Positions 29,375 to 40,406 are shown, counted from the stretch's first letter. The stretch is 64,000 nucleotides of DNA from an uncultured Gemmatimonadales bacterium (GCA_963771275.1 CAVYSW010000003.1:1696001-1760000), one strand, 5' to 3'. Numbers and translations: made by a program. The notes: generated by a model from the letters alone, not told the origin.

Positions 29375-30918
<1,544 letters not shown>

Positions 30919-30929
30919 GGGGACGGGCG

Positions 30930-31340
30930 CTAGGTGGCTTCGGGGCTGGAATCCGCCTCCTCGCCCTCGGACTGGCCGCCGTAGGATCTCCGGTCGCCGC
31001 TCAGGCCCAGGAACAAGGTGAGCCCTTCATCGATCGCCCGCATTTCTTCCGATCGGATCTGACCATAGCTCCGGCGGATTCGGCGCTTGTCAACCGACCG
31101 AACCTGATCAATCAGAGCATACGAGCGGCTGGTCAAGCCACTGGAACCGGCGTCCAACGCCGGATACAGGGCGCCGGCGGCCGCCGTCCGCGTAACCGGA
31201 ACGACTGCGATCAGCGGGAAGCGCTGATCCGCCGTGACGTCCGGATCACTTACCGCGATACAGGGCCGGAGACCGCGTTGTTCGTGTCCTCTCGTGGGAT
31301 TGAGGTCCAGCAGGAGCACGGTTCCACGAGTTGGCTTCAC
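30930..31340 (-). CDS. PemK/MazF-family endoribonuclease toxin
   Basis: RGTVLLLDLNPTRGHEQRGLRPC, VVPVT, ALIDQVRSVDKRRI. Confidence 0.9.
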   Translation of the reverse strand: MKPTRGTVLLLDLNPTRGHEQRGLRPCIAVSDPDVTADQRFPLIAVVPVTRTAAAGALYPALDAGSSGLTSRSYALIDQVRSVDKRRIRRSYGQIRSEEMRAIDEGLTLFLGLSGDRRSYGGQSEGEEADSSPEAT

Positions 31341-31645
31341 TGGTCGCCCTCGATCCAGCCATTGCCGGGCACCCAGCGAACCGGCGAGCCGGCACCGAGG
31401 TCAACCAGATCCGATGCTGGCTCTTCCGGCAGCCGCCCTGCCCAGTCATCGAAGCCTGCTTCCGCCAACGCTTCAGCCTCTGCGTGCGGGGTCGCGAGCG
31501 ACTTCCGCAGCTCCTCGCGTCGGCGACGCCCAAGCTCGCGTTGCACCGCCTCCAAAACGAAGCCGCTCCGGTTCTTCTCCCGGCGATCAATCTCCTGAAC
31601 CACGTCGCCGGGCAATGTCACGGTGATACGGGCTGTCGTGGACAT
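31337..31645 (-). CDS. Ribbon-helix-helix antitoxin
   Basis: [16 protein letters not shown]...[10 protein letters not shown]; stop overlaps the toxin start. Confidence 0.8.
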
Positions 31646-31731
31646 GGCACGCCTCCAGAGCCACACTCATACTTAAAGTAGGATCATACCGGGCGTGGTG
31701 CAAGAGGACGGAGCTAACGGAGCGCTACCGA

Positions 31732-31937
31732 CGCTTCCCCATTCGGGTCGAGCTCAAGCCGCTCACCGAGGACGACTTCGTGCGGATCATGACGGAGCCG
31801 GAGAACGCGCTCGCCAAGCAGTGCCAGGCGCCGTGCGCCGCCGGGGGGATCACCCTCGAGTTCGGCGCGGGCCCGCGGTCCGGGAGCGCCCGACGCGCAT
31901 CGTGGAGAACGAGGACCTGCGGAAGTACATCCTGTAG
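31732..31937 (+). pseudogene. Displaced, internally deleted duplicate of the hslU 3' end (copy 1)
   Basis: Matches 30559-30691 then about 30850-30918; ends [12 protein letters not shown]. Confidence 0.9.
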
Positions 31938-32212
31938 GGAACCAGTCCACCGGCCCGGCTATGCACCGCCTATGTTGCTTTCCTGGTCCCCGCTCAGCGT
32001 CGTGTCCTGGTTCGACAACACACCAACCGAAACCGAATCGAAAAGCACGAACTCCGACAGAATGTCTGGCCTCGTGCTCTGCTCCAATCATCTGAGATTC
32101 CGACCGTGCTGTAATGGTTACCCGCGGCTGCTGCCTGACGCCGAACGGCTGCCTTCGCCTGACGAGCGTCCTGCACCCCTGCTGGGCCCGGCCCGGGAGC
32201 CGTGCGGTTTGT

Positions 32213-32626
32213 TCATTCCACAGGCAGCAGCTCGACCCCCAGCTTCCGGAGACTCTGGTCGAAGGAGTGCACGCCTCTCAGTTGGCGGCTCGAGCAGAGC
32301 GCGGTGAGATACGCATCGACCAGATCCACCGGACGCTCCGCCAGGGTGTCGAGACAGGTCCGCAAGACGGGCTTTTCCGGGACGCGGAGCCCCCGGAACG
32401 CCAGAAGGTCCCGCAGCTTGGCGGCGGCCTCCGCGCTCGGGACCTCGTAGTAGCTGGTCAGCACGAAGTAGGACTGGAACAGCACCAGCGGTGTGAGGAG
32501 GGCCGTGCGCTCGCCGCGCTCGAGCTTCTCGAAGAAGGCGAAAACGCCCCGAAACGGCTTGGTGATGGTCGCGGGATCCTCGACGAGGTAGCGGATGATG
32601 ACGTTGGTATCAACCGGATCAGCCAC
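32213..32626 (-). CDS. PIN-domain (VapC-family) toxin
   Basis: GTG start, [20 protein letters not shown] acidic motifs. Confidence 0.85.
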
Positions 32627-32873
32627 GCGGCACCAGCCCCCGGCGCAGCGCCTCCGCGATCCGCCGGTCCGAGGGGAAGCGCTTGCCGCGCGCGTACTGC
32701 TTGAGGGAGCCCGCCAGCGATCGCGCCCTGGTCTCGCTGGGGCGGCGGAGTTGGATCTTGCCCTCCTGCGGCAGGACCTCCACCTCCAACACGTCACCCA
32801 CATCGATCCCCAGTTGCTCGCGGACCTGTGCCGGGATGACGACCTGCCCCTTGTTGTGGACTTTCATCAGCAT
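32619..32873 (-). CDS. AbrB/MazE/SpoVT-family antitoxin
   Basis: KVHNKGQVVIPAQVREQLGIDVGD; overlaps the PIN gene start. Confidence 0.88.
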   Translation of the reverse strand: MLMKVHNKGQVVIPAQVREQLGIDVGDVLEVEVLPQEGKIQLRRPSETRARSLAGSLKQYARGKRFPSDRRIAEALRRGLVPRG

Positions 32874-32923
32874 GTGACACCCTCGGGTTATACTAGCCAG
32901 TATAACCTACCCACCGGTCCAGG

Positions 32924-33136
32924 TCAAACCTCTCGGCCACCCACCGGTTGGCGCCCGTTGACGAGGATTGCGACGGCGGAGACGTAGATGTGGGTGTCGA
33001 AGACTGCCCTCACCGGCGGAGATAGCGCGCGAGGTCCCGCCGCGCTCAGCGTCTTCCCCTCCGCGCGCGCGAGCTCCTCCGCCTCCCGCGTCAACTCACG
33101 GGGCAGCGACATCGTCTTCTTGACGGCGGTCGCCAT
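32924..33136 (-). pseudogene. Collapsed TA remnant (RHH antitoxin N-terminus joined to a PIN toxin N-terminus)
   Basis: MATAVKKTMSLPRELTREAEELARAEGKTLS followed by VRAVFDTHIYVSA, then loss of similarity. Confidence 0.65.
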
Positions 33137-33215
33137 CCTTCCCCCTCGTAGACCGTGTCTGGCCCGGTATGAACTATTACTCCCCAGACATGGCTGGATG
33201 ATCAGGGCCACACGG

Positions 33216-33282
33216 CCCCGCGGTGCGGGAGCGCCTGATGCGCATCGTGGAGAACGAGGACCTGCGGAAGTACATCCTGTAG
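33216..33282 (+). pseudogene. Displaced duplicate of the hslU 3' end (copy 2)
   Basis: cgcggtgcgggagcgcctgatgcgcatcgtggagaacgaggacctgcggaagtacatcctgtag matches about 30855-30918. Confidence 0.9.
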
Positions 33283-33295
33283 GACGCTGACTTGG

Positions 33296-34988
33296 CTAGT
33301 TGGAATCCTCAGGTGCGCGATCCCACCCGCCTCCCAGCCTGATGGTCACGGTGGTCGGTTCGCTGAGCATGACGGGCGCCCCGATCTCGGAACCGGCACG
33401 CAGTACTCTGAAGGTCGCGCGGGCAGCGGCGATTTCCAGTGTGAGTGTATCGGGGAGGATCCCCGCAAGGGAGAATCGGAGACCCCCGCGGCCTCGGCAG
33501 GCGGAGCTCGAGCCGCCGGAAGCCCTCAGCGTGGCGGCTAGTGGGGCTGAGTCCCCGGGTGCCAGCAAGCGGACTGTCAGTTCCGCCGCACCAGTAACTG
33601 AGGAGTCCATGGCGAGCTCGACCGTTTCGCGAGCCGAGCGGGACGCCAATGCAGTGCACGCGATAGCGAAGCGGATGGGGCCAGCGAGCGCCGCGGGGGG
33701 GCGTGCCCCAGCGGTGGCAAGACTGTCTCGCGGCTGCGATCCGACAGCGCGACTCGAGTGCCGCGCCGGTACTGCTGGGGCTAGCTCGAGGCGCTCCGGC
33801 GCCACGCGCGGGGCGCCTTGACCGGTGAGGTCATAGATGTCGAGCCATAATTCGCCGTACGGACCGGTCACCCAGGCCACCACCCATCGATCGGACGCCG
33901 CGGCCGGAGCACGATTGATCAGAACTCGACGAGCAATTGCTGACTGACGATCCACCAGGTCGAACCTCAGCATACCCGGCTCTCGGCGTAGACCGACCCA
34001 TATGCTACCACCCCCGGACAGCAGTTGCCGCACCACGGCGTACCGCAAGGGTCCGACATCGCGCGATGTGATAGCGTGGCCGCCGACCGAGTTCCCTCGT
34101 AAGGCCCGCGCAAGCTCCGCCTCCGGCACCAACTCGTCTGAGGTCTCCGGTTTGCGAAACCAGGTTCCCAGAGTGCCGCCGGGCCGCACCGTGTCCACCT
34201 GGAGACGGCTTCCTCTCGCGAAATAGACCAGCCCGCCAGCATCGACGGTCCAGCGCACCTGCCCCTGATCGCGAACGTAGTCGGATGATGTGCTGAAATC
34301 TCCCACTCCTGCCACCGGGGAGCCTGATCTTCACAGGACCCTCGGTCGCGAGGCGCGGAGTCACCGCCGAATCCCCGTGATCCGGGCCCATGCGCATGAC
34401 CATGACGCTGAGGGAATCGCCTTCCCACACTGCCACGGGGACGTACACGCGGCCCACCGAGTCAATGCCCACGCCATCCGACCACACACGGGAACCGCGT
34501 TCCAGCGCGTCGACTGCCAGTCCCCAGCTCGCATCGCCGATGCGCTTCACCCAGCGCACGGCACCTGCCGTGTCCCACACGCGCACAGTACCGGAAAGCA
34601 CGTCAAGGATCGCCAAGAACCCATTGCCTGACAGGGCGATGTGGTCGCCCCACGCGCTGCCCGGCGGGACATCGCTTGGACCCGAGCCGCGCCGGCCCAG
34701 GATGCGGTAGGTTCTCGTCTCGAGATTGATCACGACGACCCGCCCGGCGCCGGTCTGGAGGATTGCCAGCCAATCGCCGCTGAGCGCGGCGGACGTCGCG
34801 CCGTCCAGGGGGAGGCTGTCGCCTCCCCCCAGCGCGATTCCCTGAATGCGGTACTCTGGAGCTGGATAGACCCTTGATGGTGGTGCGTCCGCGGCTGGGG
34901 GGGTATCCGCGAACCCACACCCCCCAGCCAGGCCACACACTAGGCCAGCGGCGTACAGCATGCGTGGCCGCGTGCGACGATGGGTCAC
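33296..34988 (-). pseudogene. Beta-propeller (NHL/6-bladed-like) exported protein split by a frameshift near 34320
   Basis: Signal-like N-terminus (THRRTRPRMLYAAGLVCGLAGGC), ILGRRGSGPSD, IGIDSVGRVYV-like blades; continues in the 33296..34315 frame (WTVDAGGLVYFARG). Confidence 0.55.
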
Positions 34989-35271
34989 CCCCACGGTCAC
35001 GGGCAAGCCTGATAGGGTCCGGGTCCGCTGCAACTGGCAGATGCACATCCAGGGCCACGCTATGCAGTTGTACGGCGGATTGATGTCAGGCATACAGTAC
35101 TGAAAGCACGAACGGAAGTGCGCCGATCGCCAGCAGCTCCTCACGCCCACCGAGGCCCCCAGCCATCGCGCCTCTCCAGCAGGACCTCGGCAAGACGTTG
35201 AGAGGCGGCGAACAAGACGACATCGGCCGCCCCTCAAGTGCAGACCAAAGTCGAGGCTAGTACTCCGTTCC

Positions 35272-35508
35272 CTACAGCGAATCCCCGGGCAGGATAATAC
35301 AGCCTTCGTCTTCACATCCGCCCGCTGTCTCCCTGCATCTGGTGTCCCAGTGGCTCTGGAAGCAATTGCCTGAATCCAGGCTGCACATGTCCGAATCGCA
35401 CCAGTCAGCGACAGCTGATGCTGGCACGATCATTGACCCCAACGAAATACCGGCCGCCACAATCGTACCGAGCAACAGAGAGTGGTGTTCGCGGCTGTGC
35501 ATTCGCAT
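35272..35508 (-). CDS. Secreted six-cysteine peptide P1 (78 aa precursor)
   Basis: RBS AGGAGG; Sec-type signal ending ASAVA; core C-x4-C-x6-C-x8-C-x6-C-x4-C-IILP; paralog of P2 and P3. Confidence 0.85.
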   Translation of the reverse strand: MRMHSREHHSLLLGTIVAAGISLGSMIVPASAVADWCDSDMCSLDSGNCFQSHWDTRCRETAGGCEDEGCIILPGDSL

Positions 35509-35592
35509 ACCATGCCTCCTCTCTTTGGCAGACTAGTTGAGGCGCTCCAACCAACATGCTGACATGGATGGAGTATCGTCCTGCCTGACCAA

Positions 35593-35835
35593 CTATGGCG
35601 TGGAATCCGACGGCAGGATCACACATCCTTCGTCCCTGCACCCGTCAGCAGTCTCATCACAGTTGATGCTGTGCGAAACCAGCTGGCAGTTGCCACCAGT
35701 TGCGTCGCACGCATTCATGTCGCAATCCCACGCATAGCTACTGGACGGGACCATTGTGGCCCCTATCGCCGCCCCAAGAACAACCGCCATCGACAGAACC
35801 CACGGTCGAGCGCCAAGTTTGTTGTTCCATGACAT
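35593..35835 (-). CDS. Secreted six-cysteine peptide P2 (80 aa precursor)
   Basis: RBS GGAGG; signal ending SSYA; core C-x4-C-x6-C-x8-C-x6-C-x4-C-VILP. Confidence 0.85.
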   Translation of the reverse strand: MSWNNKLGARPWVLSMAVVLGAAIGATMVPSSSYAWDCDMNACDATGGNCQLVSHSINCDETADGCRDEGCVILPSDSTP

Positions 35836-35887
35836 CGGAAGCCTCCGTTATCTGGCTGTTGGACAATGGAATGGTCGGAGCTACTGG

Positions 35888-36535
35888 CTACCATGAGCCA
35901 TCGTGCCGTCCGACACGACTCGAGGACTGACTACGCGGAGTTGGCGGTGGGGTTGGCAGGGGTACACCTGCCTTGATCCAGGCTTGGATTTCAAAGAGGC
36001 CCACCTTCCGGACTAGTAGCTCTCCGCGGTTTGCTGAGTACAGGGGATCGTTGGACGTACTGTCTGGAACCTGAACGGCACGATGAATCACCAGAAGCGT
36101 CGGTGTCGCTGGGGGCCCAGGGATCTCGTTCCAGAAGTACTTGAATGCAAACTCGTTAGCCCATCCACCGCCGACTGAAATCTGGTCAAACGCGCCGAAC
36201 TTGCTGAGGTGCCTGAGCCCGCTGGTGATGGTGGGATCCAACGCGACGCCCTCGGTCACAAATCGGAATCCAGTCGCAGCTGCCCGATGGCCAAGAGCCT
36301 CTTTCACTTCTCTCACTTCTTCGGCGAAACCAGCGCGATTGCACCACGAGCATGATGCCTGGCCGATATAGATCATCACCAGCTCATCGCCCGTGCGCAG
36401 CGAACGTCGGGGTGGGTCTGCGAGCCTTACGTAGTGAAAGCCGCCCACCACACGTTTGGCAGCCGCTCCCGCAGCTATCGATCCCACGAAGACAGCCACA
36501 GAAACCACCACGAGGCTCCTGTTCCAGACTCTCAT
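35888..36535 (-). CDS. Membrane-anchored thioredoxin-fold CxxC protein
   Basis: N-terminal TM/signal, LVMIYIGQASCSWC, VTEGVALD strand, ATPTLLV putative cis-Pro; ATG 36535 overlaps the upstream stop. Confidence 0.7.
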   Translation of the reverse strand: MRVWNRSLVVVSVAVFVGSIAAGAAAKRVVGGFHYVRLADPPRRSLRTGDELVMIYIGQASCSWCNRAGFAEEVREVKEALGHRAAATGFRFVTEGVALDPTITSGLRHLSKFGAFDQISVGGGWANEFAFKYFWNEIPGPPATPTLLVIHRAVQVPDSTSNDPLYSANRGELLVRKVGLFEIQAWIKAGVPLPTPPPTPRSQSSSRVGRHDGSW

Positions 36536-37713
36536 GAGGATCGCGTCCCCCATTCGTAGATCTCGATGCGTGGGAAAGGATCCTCCCGCAGCGACACAAA
36601 GAAGCCATCGCCGAACGCCACTATCCGTGGGAACCCCCGGCCAAGTGCGACTATCCGTCCATCCTGTGCGCCGATCGCGAATGTGCGCAACTCTGTCAGC
36701 TCATTCCGAGCATCCGCGTCTTCGCGACTGACGTAGGCAATCTGCGCAAGAAAGAACGGCCTCGTCACGCCAGGTGGCCAAGGTCTCACAGGCACGAGAG
36801 AGTATGTATGGTCGTATCCGTCCTCCGGAATCCGTGTACGTGTACCTCGAGCGGTCCTCGCGAAGTAAATCGGGCGGAAGCCATCAACAACCGTAATCCA
36901 CTCAGGAGTTCCGTCTGTTCCATAGGCGTGGAACTCTCCCAACAAGGCCATTGGCGCCAACACCAGTCGATCCGGGTCCCGGTCACACGCGAGCAGACTA
37001 CGGTTCACGTGGACCGCTACCATCGCGTCAGGGGCGTTGTATACCTGTCCGAATGATGCTTCCACGCGCTCACCGGAGACTCGGTGAATCAACGGAGGCG
37101 CTTTGAAGGCAGCTCCTCCGGGCGCGAATGTCGTTCCGTGAATGAAGAGCCCTGACGGCAGCACACACACGTCGATGGGCTCAAAATCGTATGAGAAACT
37201 CCGCTCGAATCTGAAGCCCGCTCCATCATGGATGAACTTGTGAACGTGGTAGACATCCAGCACATACAAGGCGCCGTCTTGTCCCATCGCCAGCCGGCGA
37301 GGTTCGACGAACTCGCCGGGGCCCCTTCCGGCCGCACCGACACTCGCTATGTACTGGCCATCCCGTCCGAAGACTCGAACCGCATGGCTGTAGGAGTCCA
37401 GCACGTAGATGCTGTTAGATGAGTCGACGACAACGTCCGACACCTTGCCAAACATCTGCTCACGCGGTCCCTCCAGTACGCCCACGACCGCTGACCGGCG
37501 TGCTGCCGACAGCACCCGGAATAGAGGGTGGTCCTCGGCGGCAGCAGCTCCCAGATCAACGCGCGAATGGACCGGGATTGGACGGTGGAAGAATTCCTTC
37601 CGGGGATGCACAACATCCCCGCCCGCGGTTCCTGCCGCAGCGCTCCCTCCAGTTCCCCTGCATGAGCACAATGTAACGGCGATTAGAGTCAGTACCTGAA
37701 GCTCGTTGAGCAT
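36532..37713 (-). CDS. 6-bladed beta-propeller (NHL-like) lipoprotein
   Basis: Lipobox-like TLCSC; FGKVSDVVVDSSNSIYVLD, VGAAGRGPGEFVEP, DGALYVLD; C-terminal PFPRIEIYE. Confidence 0.8.
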   Translation of the reverse strand: MLNELQVLTLIAVTLCSCRGTGGSAAAGTAGGDVVHPRKEFFHRPIPVHSRVDLGAAAAEDHPLFRVLSAARRSAVVGVLEGPREQMFGKVSDVVVDSSNSIYVLDSYSHAVRVFGRDGQYIASVGAAGRGPGEFVEPRRLAMGQDGALYVLDVYHVHKFIHDGAGFRFERSFSYDFEPIDVCVLPSGLFIHGTTFAPGGAAFKAPPLIHRVSGERVEASFGQVYNAPDAMVAVHVNRSLLACDRDPDRLVLAPMALLGEFHAYGTDGTPEWITVVDGFRPIYFARTARGTRTRIPEDGYDHTYSLVPVRPWPPGVTRPFFLAQIAYVSREDADARNELTELRTFAIGAQDGRIVALGRGFPRIVAFGDGFFVSLREDPFPRIEIYEWGTRSS

Positions 37714-37826
37714 GTTTCACACTCTTCGGCCAGGACAGCAGCAGGACGGACCTCTCATCTCCACACGCGCATCGTCGCCCAAGGGCCTATGCGCATCCTT
37801 CGGCTTGGGATCTCCACAGACCGCTC

Positions 37827-38042
37827 TCATTCCCCTGGGAGCACAACACACTCACTATCGTCGCACGGGTCGCCAGAGCAGTTGATCTCCCATCTCACCG
37901 CCTCGCACTTGTGACTATCCAGATTGCATGCCTGATGATTGCAGCTATCTGCGCTACTGGCAGCAGGAGTCAGCAGGAAGCCCACGAAGAGGCCGCCCAC
38001 GATCATGCCTCCTTGGACCAGGTTCGCAATCGCTTTGCGCAT
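37827..38042 (-). CDS. Secreted six-cysteine peptide P3 (71 aa precursor)
   Basis: Signal MRKAIANL...TPAASSA; core C-x4-C-x6-C-x8-C-x4-C-x4-C-VVLP. Confidence 0.85.
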   Translation of the reverse strand: MRKAIANLVQGGMIVGGLFVGFLLTPAASSADSCNHQACNLDSHKCEAVRWEINCSGDPCDDSECVVLPGE

Positions 38043-38194
38043 GGCTCAACCCACTCATCGTGAGGGTCAAGTACCCTTGGCTACGGTACGCCGTACTTTA
38101 TGGCACCGGCATTGTCGACTTAATGCTATGAAAAACCAGAGGCTGCTGCTAGGTCACATTCCCGGTAGACGCGGCACATGCCTCGCGAACCCCG

Positions 38195-38590
38195 TCACCA
38201 GTCTCTGGCCTTCTCGAGCGTCGATACAACCCCTGCCCTGAAGGTGCTTGGTGCGCAGCCAACCACCCGTTGGAACCACCGCTCGAATCCACGAAGATCA
38301 TTGAACCCCACCGCGAATGCGACCTGAGTAATCGGTATATGACGGCTACGCATGAGCTCCATAGCCTTTTCAGTACGTATGCGCGCAAGCCATTCGGTGA
38401 AAGTCATGCCGGTTTTCGAGCGGAAGTACGTTGAGAAGTACTTCGGCTTAAAGCCACTCGCGGCAGCTGCAGCCGTCAGCGAAATCGGTCGCGCTGGATT
38501 GCGCAGAACACACTCCGCGACACGCGTGAGCGGCCGGTAGTAGCGCAGTATTGCCCGGTCCACGCCGCCGATCCGCGTGTTCGCATCCAT
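38195..38590 (-). CDS. Stand-alone AraC-family HTH regulator
   Basis: ISLTAAA...YFSTYFRSKTGMTF...ITQVAFAVGFNDLRGFERWFQRVVGCAPSTFR; start uncertain. Confidence 0.8.
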   Translation of the reverse strand: MDANTRIGGVDRAILRYYRPLTRVAECVLRNPARPISLTAAAAASGFKPKYFSTYFRSKTGMTFTEWLARIRTEKAMELMRSRHIPITQVAFAVGFNDLRGFERWFQRVVGCAPSTFRAGVVSTLEKARDW

Positions 38591-38819
38591 AGTCGGAAGC
38601 GTTGCCTCATCGGCATCGGCTGGCTCAGTGACCGAGGGGCGCCCCTTCAGAACATGCATCGCCGCACAGGAGACGGTACCGCCGCGCTCGTCAGCCAACA
38701 CCTCTACCCCCATCAAGGCATCGGCTTCACCTCGGAAGCCTCTGCGTTCAGTACTCAAGGGCCGGCCGCCACACCGCAGCGTCGCTTCTAGTCCGAAGAT
38801 GCACCTAGGCGTGCTCCCG

Positions 38820-39026
38820 TTACATCCCGACCTGCCATGTAGCGCGTGTGCCACCTCCTTGGTAGATCCGCCACACATAGCTATGAACCGTGTGCGCAGA
38901 GAGGCCCAAGTGGCTCGCTATGGTAGCCTCCACGTCGCCATCCAGAAGGCATTGCGCGACCTCGGACTCCCTCGGCGACAGCCCAAGGCGATCCGTCACC
39001 ACGTTCCACTCTCCGGCCTGGAACAA
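38820..39026 (-). CDS. Stand-alone LuxR-type HTH protein (possibly degenerate)
   Basis: LGLSPRESEVAQCLLDG...IASHLGLSAHTVHSYVWRIY; start and C-terminus uncertain. Confidence 0.65.
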   Translation of the reverse strand: MFQAGEWNVVTDRLGLSPRESEVAQCLLDGDVEATIASHLGLSAHTVHSYVWRIYQGGGTRATWQVGM

Positions 39027-39304: not shown

Positions 39305-40265
39305 TTAAGACGCATCCGCTTCCTGGCCTCCGCGCTTCCCGCTGATCCAGATGAACGGCGGCCACGCCCCGGCGATGAGGTGGTCGCGCAGGGCCCTCAC
39401 CAGTCGGGGGACGGGGCGGTAGCTCTCCCAGTGCGTGACCTGCCGAGGCAGGAGGTTGAGCCACACACCGACCATCTCCTCCCACCTGGCGCCACGCGGG
39501 GTGAAGTGGAGCCGGACATGGGGGTGGCGTGCCTCGTAGTCCTGCGCGCCACGTCGTGGGTACAGCGCGCGCTCGCTGAGGATCGCGTGGAGCTCGGCGC
39601 CGGAATCCACGGCGAGAGCGTCGAGAAACCGGAATACGTCCGCCCGGGGATCGTCTCTCCGCTCCCTCGAGGAGCGCAACCCGCCCGCGACTGCCGCGAA
39701 GACGCTGGTGAACTCCGGCAGGGCTTCGTTGCCCGGCCTTGCGCGCGCCGAGTTGCACGAGAACACGAACGCGGGGTCCCTCGCCCGCAGATGAACGCCG
39801 GCGATGCCCTCGACCCGGAGCGGCGTGAGCGGTGACCGCACACCGGTGGGCGACCCCAGCCGGTGTTCGCTGAGGATCTCACGCACGCGGTGCAAGGACA
39901 CTGCGGTGCGGTGGGCAAGGGCGGGGATCGCCGGAGGCCGACGCCCGCGCACCGCGGCGCGAAGCGCCAGCGCCACCACTCGCATCGCACTGCGGAGCGG
40001 CAGCCCTCGGAGGCCTGCCGGACTTGGGACGGTCTGCCAAGCCGGCCAGCCTCCCCGCGAGGAAGCGCGCGCGCAATCGGCTCACGTGCACAGTGGTGTA
40101 TCCGGTCCGACGAGCGATCTCCTCAGCCGGCAGCCCCGTGCCGAGCAGCAGCACGGCGTAGGCGCGGCGGCGCCGGCCGGCGGACCCGCCCGAGCCGCCG
40201 GCGAGCGCCGTCAACTCGCGGCGCTCGTCTCGGCTCAACCCGACATAATGCCGAGGCTCAGTCAT
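39305..40265 (-). mobile_element. IS630-family transposase relic (two frames, degenerate DDE)
   Basis: HTH frame: LSRDERREL...RARFLAGRLAGLADRPKSGRPPR; second frame: ELHAIL...RHPHVRLHFTP...PFIW. No terminal repeats recognised. Confidence 0.75.
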
Positions 40266-40406
40266 GGATCCGCTCTCGCTCAATACCCAATCCCTAGATG
40301 CCGCTGGAAGGCCAGTCGTTACCACCACACCCGTCTTTACACCTACCACCCACGCGGATACTATCCCCCGGGGTCCTGTCAATTTGACCGACTGCCGCCC
40401 ACGGAC

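Follow-up and report, generated by a model that had tools for sequence, protein, structure and literature searches.

Genes of the island

The stretch of DNA analysed here (the window) comprises 64,000 nucleotides from an uncultured Gemmatimonadales bacterium (GCA_963771275.1, CAVYSW010000003.1:1696001-1760000), the genome of which is 3.86 Mb in size with a GC content of about 70%. Between hslU and argF lies an island (33,296 to 39,026), minus strand throughout, that reads in minus-strand order: LuxR fragment, short AraC-type regulator, peptide P3, propeller 1, thioredoxin-fold protein, peptides P2 and P1, and a split propeller 2. This confirms the eight co-oriented genes listed by an earlier, first-pass annotation of the sequence. 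A small exported six-cysteine peptide, a beta-propeller lipoprotein and a thioredoxin-fold protein make up the conserved trio that this mobile island carries as a cassette, and the trio is a real, widespread, conserved and uncurated cassette of three families. The low GC content first attributed to the whole island holds at 35-39 kb only (0.59-0.60) and not at 33-35 kb (0.67), against about 0.70 for the genome; GC at third codon positions is 0.62-0.77 in the island and 0.91-0.94 in three flanking core genes.

P3 (37827..38042), directly upstream of propeller 1, P2 (35593..35835), and P1 (35272..35508), upstream of propeller 2, each combine a hydrophobic N-terminal stretch and an Ala-x-Ala-like end, taken as a signal peptide by eye and hydropathy, with an acidic core of six cysteines spaced C-x4-C-x6-C-x8-C-x(4-6)-C-x4-C. 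Their mutual identity is 33-44%, and GGAGG is found upstream of the ATG of both P2 and P1. Across the genome, the peptide profile matched 4 of 22,113 small open reading frames (ORFs), all in the island or its second copy, and the Cys pattern alone matched five, three of which are P1-P3, in agreement with the exported six-Cys peptides of the first-pass annotation. A model of P3 with the signal helix included has four short strands (pLDDT 74.5, pTM 0.39), and this low-confidence model found no match in the PDB by Foldseek or VIA-align. A PDB search with the peptide sequence profile returned one hit (E 4), an atlas search with P1 only clusters without names, below 0.9, and a homologue search with the peptide alignment 12 proteins, all nameless or labelled hypothetical.

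Propeller 1 (36532..37713) is a six-bladed beta-propeller lipoprotein of the NHL/DUF5128 type, scoring 51 bits against PF17170 (cut-off 22.9) and 41 bits against PF01436, with PDB profile hits to NHL propellers, and belongs to a subfamily with two cysteines (C183, C243). The thioredoxin-fold gene (35888..36535) has its most probable start at 36535, where it overlaps the propeller 1 stop (ATGA), and encodes a membrane-anchored TlpA/ResA-like protein of an uncurated family, identified from a model and a family alignment, that carries CSWC in this copy, with C62 and cis-Pro145. The model (pLDDT 90) consists of an N-terminal helix and a domain resembling TlpA, CcmG and ResA, which bears out the thioredoxin fold first proposed. 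The best structural Z is 9.1, with an rmsd of about 3 Å over about 115 residues; CcmG, DsbE and ResA are the top matches at 9-18% identity, TlpA is also near, a quenching protein (7djk, Z 8.2) and NHLRC2 (6gc1, Z 7.1) are among the matches, and Sco1 stands further down the list.

Of the two propellers initially annotated, the first stands and the second is broken. A frameshift near 34,320, which may be real or an assembly error, separates a divergent N-terminal half with a lipobox-like Cys (34332..34961; 14 bits against a custom propeller profile, positions 61-204) from a C-terminal half with a tail of about 170 residues of no assignment (33296..34315; 18 bits, positions 245-376). The halves are collinear on the profile at only 14-18 bits, propeller 2 had no Pfam hit, and no homologue of the C-terminal ORF was found at 186-594 aa. 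The tail of this ORF (33296-33820) gave no hit and may belong to another gene, because a 90%-alike stretch follows unrelated sequence in one DNA run. Elsewhere in the genome, a peptidase-like gene is spread over several frames (contig C11:25489-27483), so the host assembly may carry indel errors. The same contig holds the second genomic copy of the cassette, 1.7 kb at 96% identity with a peptide, a propeller and a cut thioredoxin gene.

Conservation of the three families

The thioredoxin-fold family was found in 62 of 401 Gemmatimonadota genomes, the host included, and 86 loci were examined after eight weak or partial rows and those of the host genome had been set aside. Counting same-strand propellers within 5.5 kb of the thioredoxin-fold gene, a propeller was present in 72 loci, a peptide in 68, both partners in 64 and neither in 10; these counts are partly circular because the peptide profile was built from the same loci. 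Of the 67 loci in which each flank extends for at least 4 kb, 50 have the full trio. A family-blind filter for small ORFs with a hydrophobic N-terminus and at least four cysteines returned 68 on the thioredoxin strand, three of them from the window, vs 15 on the other strand; four of the 68 were discarded by eye as spurious, and a profile built from the rest added 37. The refutation test set in advance, whether homologues sit beside Cys-rich small ORFs, thus came out in favour of the first-pass annotation, with a peptide in 68 of 86 loci.

When whole genomes were searched with the peptide, 46 of 401 matched, and 38 of the 45 other than the host also hold the thioredoxin family. Twelve peptide loci lay outside the thioredoxin set, one of them false; among the other 11, seven have a same-strand propeller, one has an opposite-strand propeller, one is at a contig edge and two have no propeller. 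Peptide and propeller are the tighter pair, since seven of these 11 thioredoxin-independent loci keep the same-strand propeller. The gene after the peptide (n = 98) was a propeller in 44 cases, another peptide in 13 and the thioredoxin gene in seven. Propeller stop and thioredoxin start overlap with ATGA-type spacing in 25 of 52 pairs, and the co-divergence of these two proteins is strong (Mantel 0.76). A Rhodothermales genome (L148/L151) has peptide-propeller units in tandem, and the unit also occurs twice in the window. Two of three Rhodothermales loci have the full trio and the third a propeller with a thioredoxin gene, a Balneolaceae genome has the trio in the same layout, and an Acidobacteria genome holds propeller, thioredoxin, permease and DsbA genes together, with peptides on another contig. 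The thioredoxin family is present in 32 of the 151 genomes from the order to which one Rhodothermales genome belongs; the distribution of the cassette is patchy and multi-copy.

The modal spacing of the peptides across loci is C-x4-C-x(4-15)-C-x(6-10)-C-x(6-10)-C-x4-C, and 79 of the 98 peptides with six or more core cysteines have exactly six. Only the cysteines are conserved, with hypervariable loops and a mean column identity of 16%; no conserved His or Met ligand column and no leader motif beyond a generic signal peptide was seen. The cores are net negative in 83 of 101 cases (mean -3.5; three at +3 or more), Trp is absent from 29 of 101, and no Trp column is conserved. Some loci hold up to four different peptides (L079). 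None of 47 peptides reached a shared Pfam or NCBIfam family. In five loci (L045:6597-7325, L046:3026-3742, L050:6683-7390, L053:7805-8515 and L056:6657-7382), a domain of 140 residues is joined to the six-Cys module, and the one member scanned had no Pfam hit for this domain; signal peptidase I is the next gene in L050 and L056.

The cassette-linked propellers belong to one subfamily, which has a lipobox Cys (C18 in 44 of 49) and an N-terminal His-Pro and in which C183 and C243 are invariant (49/49) and H36-P37, D106, Y225 and Q324 are conserved at a mutual identity of about 22%. Exactly two cysteines occur in the last 300 residues of 45 of the 50 propellers directly before a thioredoxin gene, and 11 of the 17 other propellers of the host genome have no such Cys.

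The thioredoxin-fold profile covers 1,748 clusters at 50% identity, and the protein has no Pfam or NCBIfam match; the peptides likewise reached no family, in line with the first-pass remark that no named system with this arrangement was known. Among 139 of the best 150 family members, C62 and cis-P145 are invariant (139/139), and the fourth position of the motif is occupied by Ser in 78 members, by Cys in 38 and by Ala in 15. The 90 genomic copies comprise 57 with CxxS, 14 with CxxC, eight with another Cxx motif, seven without the first Cys (one of them SxxS) and four fragments missing the site. The family is mostly one-thiol and TlpA/ResA-like, because CxxS outnumbers CxxC. The label of CxxC oxidoreductase given at first sight therefore suits the window copy but not the family, where CxxC is a minority (38/139 and 14/90) and, among the 86 homologues with the site covered, six are clearly Cys-less. 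The family shares with TlpA, ResA, CcmG and DsbE the fold (Z 8-9), the N-terminal anchor, the first Cys and the cis-Pro, but differs from them in its low identity, in having the second Cys in a minority of members, and in a thioredoxin Pfam hit in only 1 of 139. On the strength of the model, the family is assigned a thioredoxin fold with predicted thiol-disulfide activity. In one locus (L122:4852-6642), a member without the active-site Cys is fused ahead of a propeller, in the domain order of NHLRC2. No relative was found on viral contigs, and a genome-collection scan with one low-GC homologue returned nothing.

Neighbouring genes and island borders

Selected recurrent neighbour clusters were scanned with Pfam through one representative each. 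On the same strand these are a DsbA family (13 loci), a MacB/FtsX permease (eight) and signal peptidase I (five), and two CarboxypepD/Plug outer-membrane families recur in 14 and 15 loci; each of these recurrent families is predicted to act in export or folding. When 428 long neighbour ORFs were screened for motifs, a radical-SAM motif turned up once and a C39 motif in none, and in the island itself no ORF hit a RiPP (ribosomally synthesised and post-translationally modified peptide) enzyme or C39 family in Pfam/NCBIfam scans, as the first-pass annotation had stated.

The regulators had been counted as parts of the system. The LuxR-type helix-turn-helix (HTH) gene (38820..39026, minus strand; PF00196, E 3e-9) is a 68-aa fragment consisting of the HTH only, and the short AraC-type HTH regulator (38195..38590, minus strand; PF12833, E 6e-21) has about 131 aa from its likely Met in a frame open from 38878. 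Each had one further hit among the examined loci, and both were rejected as core parts since they are not conserved. A promoter and terminator scan gave nothing exceeding shuffled sequence, and a search for RNA runs containing the stretch listed none. PADLOC returned 0/7, and an anti-phage system was rejected.

The left border of the island is a third copy of the hslU 3′ end (33213..33283, plus strand, 71 nt; other copies at 30849-30919 and 31868-31938), and the right border is an IS630-type transposase remnant (39305..40382, minus strand) matching NF033545 in two pieces (E 2e-8 and E 0.09). Two toxin-antitoxin cassettes, MazF/MazE-like (30930-31666) and PIN/AbrB (32213-32873), lie between the three hslU ends (30849-33283). 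A contig of one DNA run joins 33239 back to 31895 through the hslU-end repeat, the pattern expected of an excised circle or a tandem duplication of a 1,345-nt unit, and another DNA run has the toxin-antitoxin cassettes in a different order. This position, at the hslU end and downstream of xerC-hslV, resembles an integration hotspot.

A sibling cassette in the same genome (C3:646563-649459) holds a short AraC gene, a pair of exported peptides with a different Cys pattern, a propeller with two cysteines and a thioredoxin-like protein with CAWC, the last missed by the family search; its layout is alike, its families different. At C3:767631-769108, in a region with several propellers (C3:751-772 kb), a 108-aa exported protein with a few cysteines directly precedes a propeller and an efflux adaptor/outer-membrane pair. 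In one conflict-system neighbourhood (L125:6051-11980), the gene immediately upstream of a peptide-propeller pair encodes a 1,707-aa RHS-repeat protein.

Proposed function and relation to known systems

The pairing of a thioredoxin-like fold containing a cis-Pro with a six-bladed NHL propeller is shared with NHLRC2, known from animals and some bacteria, and with SOQ1. NHLRC2 is reported (PMC6107167) to be a single chain in which both domains, the first with a cis-Pro and the motif CCINC / CC(I/V)NC, form a cleft, and to have no classical insulin-reductase activity; SOQ1 is reported (10.1101/2024.11.01.621559) to be a membrane-anchored protein of the plant thylakoid lumen that is redox-active on a protein client. 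Unlike these, the cassette has two separate exported genes with the propeller first and the motif CxxS or CxxC, CC(I/V)NC being absent, and there is one Cys-less fusion among 90 copies. Unlike NHLRC2, it also co-encodes a dedicated six-Cys miniprotein, and seven bacterial NHLRC2 loci had no conserved neighbours.

Our favoured reading, to which we give roughly even chances, is that the island encodes a polymorphic exported-miniprotein cassette in which the propeller would be the cognate binder and the thioredoxin-fold protein the folding helper. Even sets of cysteines become disulfides after Sec export into the oxidising periplasm; a thioredoxin fold with CxxS forms mixed disulfides and works as an isomerase or holdase. 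The peptides, once exported by Sec into this oxidising compartment, would become three-disulfide miniproteins, and the one-thiol thioredoxin-fold protein would shuffle or hold their disulfides; it is more likely an isomerase or holdase than an oxidase, because a separate DsbA-family gene is present in 13 loci. Propeller and thioredoxin fold would work next to each other at the inner membrane, in the manner of a two-chain form of the NHLRC2/SOQ1 cleft with the peptide as client, and the neighbouring propeller lipoprotein would bind the folded peptide as its cognate partner. The folded peptide may then serve as a strain-specific ligand in cell-to-cell interaction, either a signal or a receptor-targeting antagonist, with the propeller as its receptor or as a self-protection factor. 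Judged from sequence, this mechanism is plausible.

Several observations weigh against it. Binding between peptide and propeller is suggested by gene order only, and their co-divergence (0.33, 23 triples) is no higher than that of peptide and thioredoxin (0.37) and so is explained by linkage alone. Some other gene, often for an outer-membrane protein, follows 33 of 98 peptides, 10 of the 86 thioredoxin loci have neither partner, and many loci are close kin or near-identical, so that the counts overstate independence. The propeller may itself be the substrate of the thioredoxin-fold protein, because a Cys pair is present in the linked propeller too (45/50), and the sole thioredoxin-propeller fusion has no active-site Cys. 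The acidic cores also argue against a membrane-lytic antimicrobial.

An unlikely alternative is an envelope redox or metal unit, with propeller and thioredoxin fold as an NHLRC2/SOQ1-like reductase and the peptide as a periplasmic carrier of thiols or of a metal such as copper, passed to a TonB-type protein where one is present. The nearest folds are those of the reducing-side proteins CcmG, ResA, DsbE and TlpA, with Sco1 further down, NHLRC2 and the quenching protein are among the structural matches, the cores are acidic, and the layout peptide, Plug-domain protein, propeller, thioredoxin occurs in 14 loci. These 14 loci, however, are largely close kin, the peptides have no conserved His or Met ligands besides their mostly six cysteines, and hypervariable loops with as many as four peptides per locus would be odd for a simple carrier.

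It is doubtful that the cassette is a new RiPP class in which the propeller is a periplasmic enzyme that would modify the disulfide-folded peptide by cleavage, amidation or cross-link. Six-bladed propeller enzymes exist, the gene order is that of a precursor followed by its partner, a peptidyl-glycine amidating enzyme gives a weak profile hit to the propeller (3fvz, E 1e-7, blade region only), and the conserved His-Pro, Asp, Tyr and Gln positions of the propeller subfamily could be read in the same way. Against this, the peptides share neither a leader motif nor any core residue except Cys, the propellers retain a single conserved His and no metal-binding His cluster such as supplies the ligands of amidating lyases, and they are highly divergent from one another. 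The cassette also differs from enzyme-modified RiPPs (radical SAM, lanthi-, YcaO, MNIO, glycocin) in that no class-defining enzyme was found in the island.

The mau gene cluster (MauB, MauE, MauD, MauA) of methylamine dehydrogenase (MADH) has the same three kinds of part, a propeller, a thioredoxin-fold folding factor and a small disulfide-rich exported subunit. MauB is the propeller, and in the small subunit of MADH and AADH (aromatic amine dehydrogenase) two conserved Trp residues form the quinone cofactor. MauD is reported to be a thioredoxin-fold protein that helps to form the six disulfides of MADH (10.64898/2026.03.05.709764). A MADH-like heteromeric enzyme made of a small disulfide-rich subunit, a propeller subunit and a MauD-like folding factor is nonetheless very improbable here, and we rejected it as close to refuted: the cassette peptides have no conserved Trp pair, their cores of about 40 residues are hypervariable and often several per locus, CxxCH occurs in only 2 of the 428 long neighbour ORFs, both more than 4 kb away, and no MauE or MauG recurs among the neighbour clusters scanned.

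That the genes came together by chance, or that the island is decaying and its small ORFs are spurious, might be suggested by the broken propeller 2 and LuxR genes and by the truncated thioredoxin gene and read-through peptide end of the C11 copy, but is very improbable given a trio conserved across phyla, the genome-wide control (4/22,113) and the two propeller copies, which differ by 19 synonymous vs 10 nonsynonymous codon changes; for the family it is refuted.

Two known arrangements come close to the miniprotein cassette that we favour. Class II bacteriocins, laterosporulin and sublancin (Bdb proteins) are unmodified bacteriocins, exported by Sec or disulfide-bonded, that come with dedicated thiol-disulfide oxidoreductases and immunity genes, and the cassette is like them in its small exported Cys peptide, its own thioredoxin-fold gene, the cognate gene directly downstream and the mobile island. 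It is unlike them in its acidic rather than cationic cores, in its partner, a 390-aa propeller lipoprotein, and in having no C39 exporter, glycosyltransferase or family match; because the cores are acidic, a membrane-lytic antimicrobial is disfavoured and a cationic one, whether defensin-like or a class II bacteriocin, was rejected. In Bacteroidota, the uncharacterised NVEALA small proteins (PF14055) sit beside DUF5128/TolB-like propellers, and the cassette resembles them in placing a small exported protein ahead of a PF17170-type propeller lipoprotein, but its Cys pattern differs and PF14055 matched 0 of 47 peptides; the term NVEALA was not found in the literature searched. That literature, which leaves most subscription journals outside its coverage, yielded no paper on the cassette among the matches listed, and one candidate account (10.1101/2022.03.08.483559) was set aside as unrelated.

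Somewhat more tentatively than the cassette reading itself, we propose that the peptides may constitute a new bacterial family of three-disulfide miniproteins with their own periplasmic maturation station, a split NHLRC2/SOQ1-like propeller and monothiol thioredoxin, which would have spread as a mobile cassette through Gemmatimonadota, Rhodothermales, Balneolaceae and Acidobacteria and would provide a polymorphic ligand-receptor code between strains. Disulfide-rich miniproteins are known mostly from animals and plants, and here fewer than 90 bacterial loci supply about 100 natural variants of one six-Cys scaffold, beside a helper family whose 1,748 clusters are all uncurated. If the proposal is true, nature would here provide a library of stable scaffolds for binders together with a dedicated folding factor, a function would be found for the DUF5128 propellers that abound in these phyla, and the cassette would offer a simple bacterial model for client handling by a thioredoxin fold and an NHL propeller, a question that also concerns human NHLRC2.

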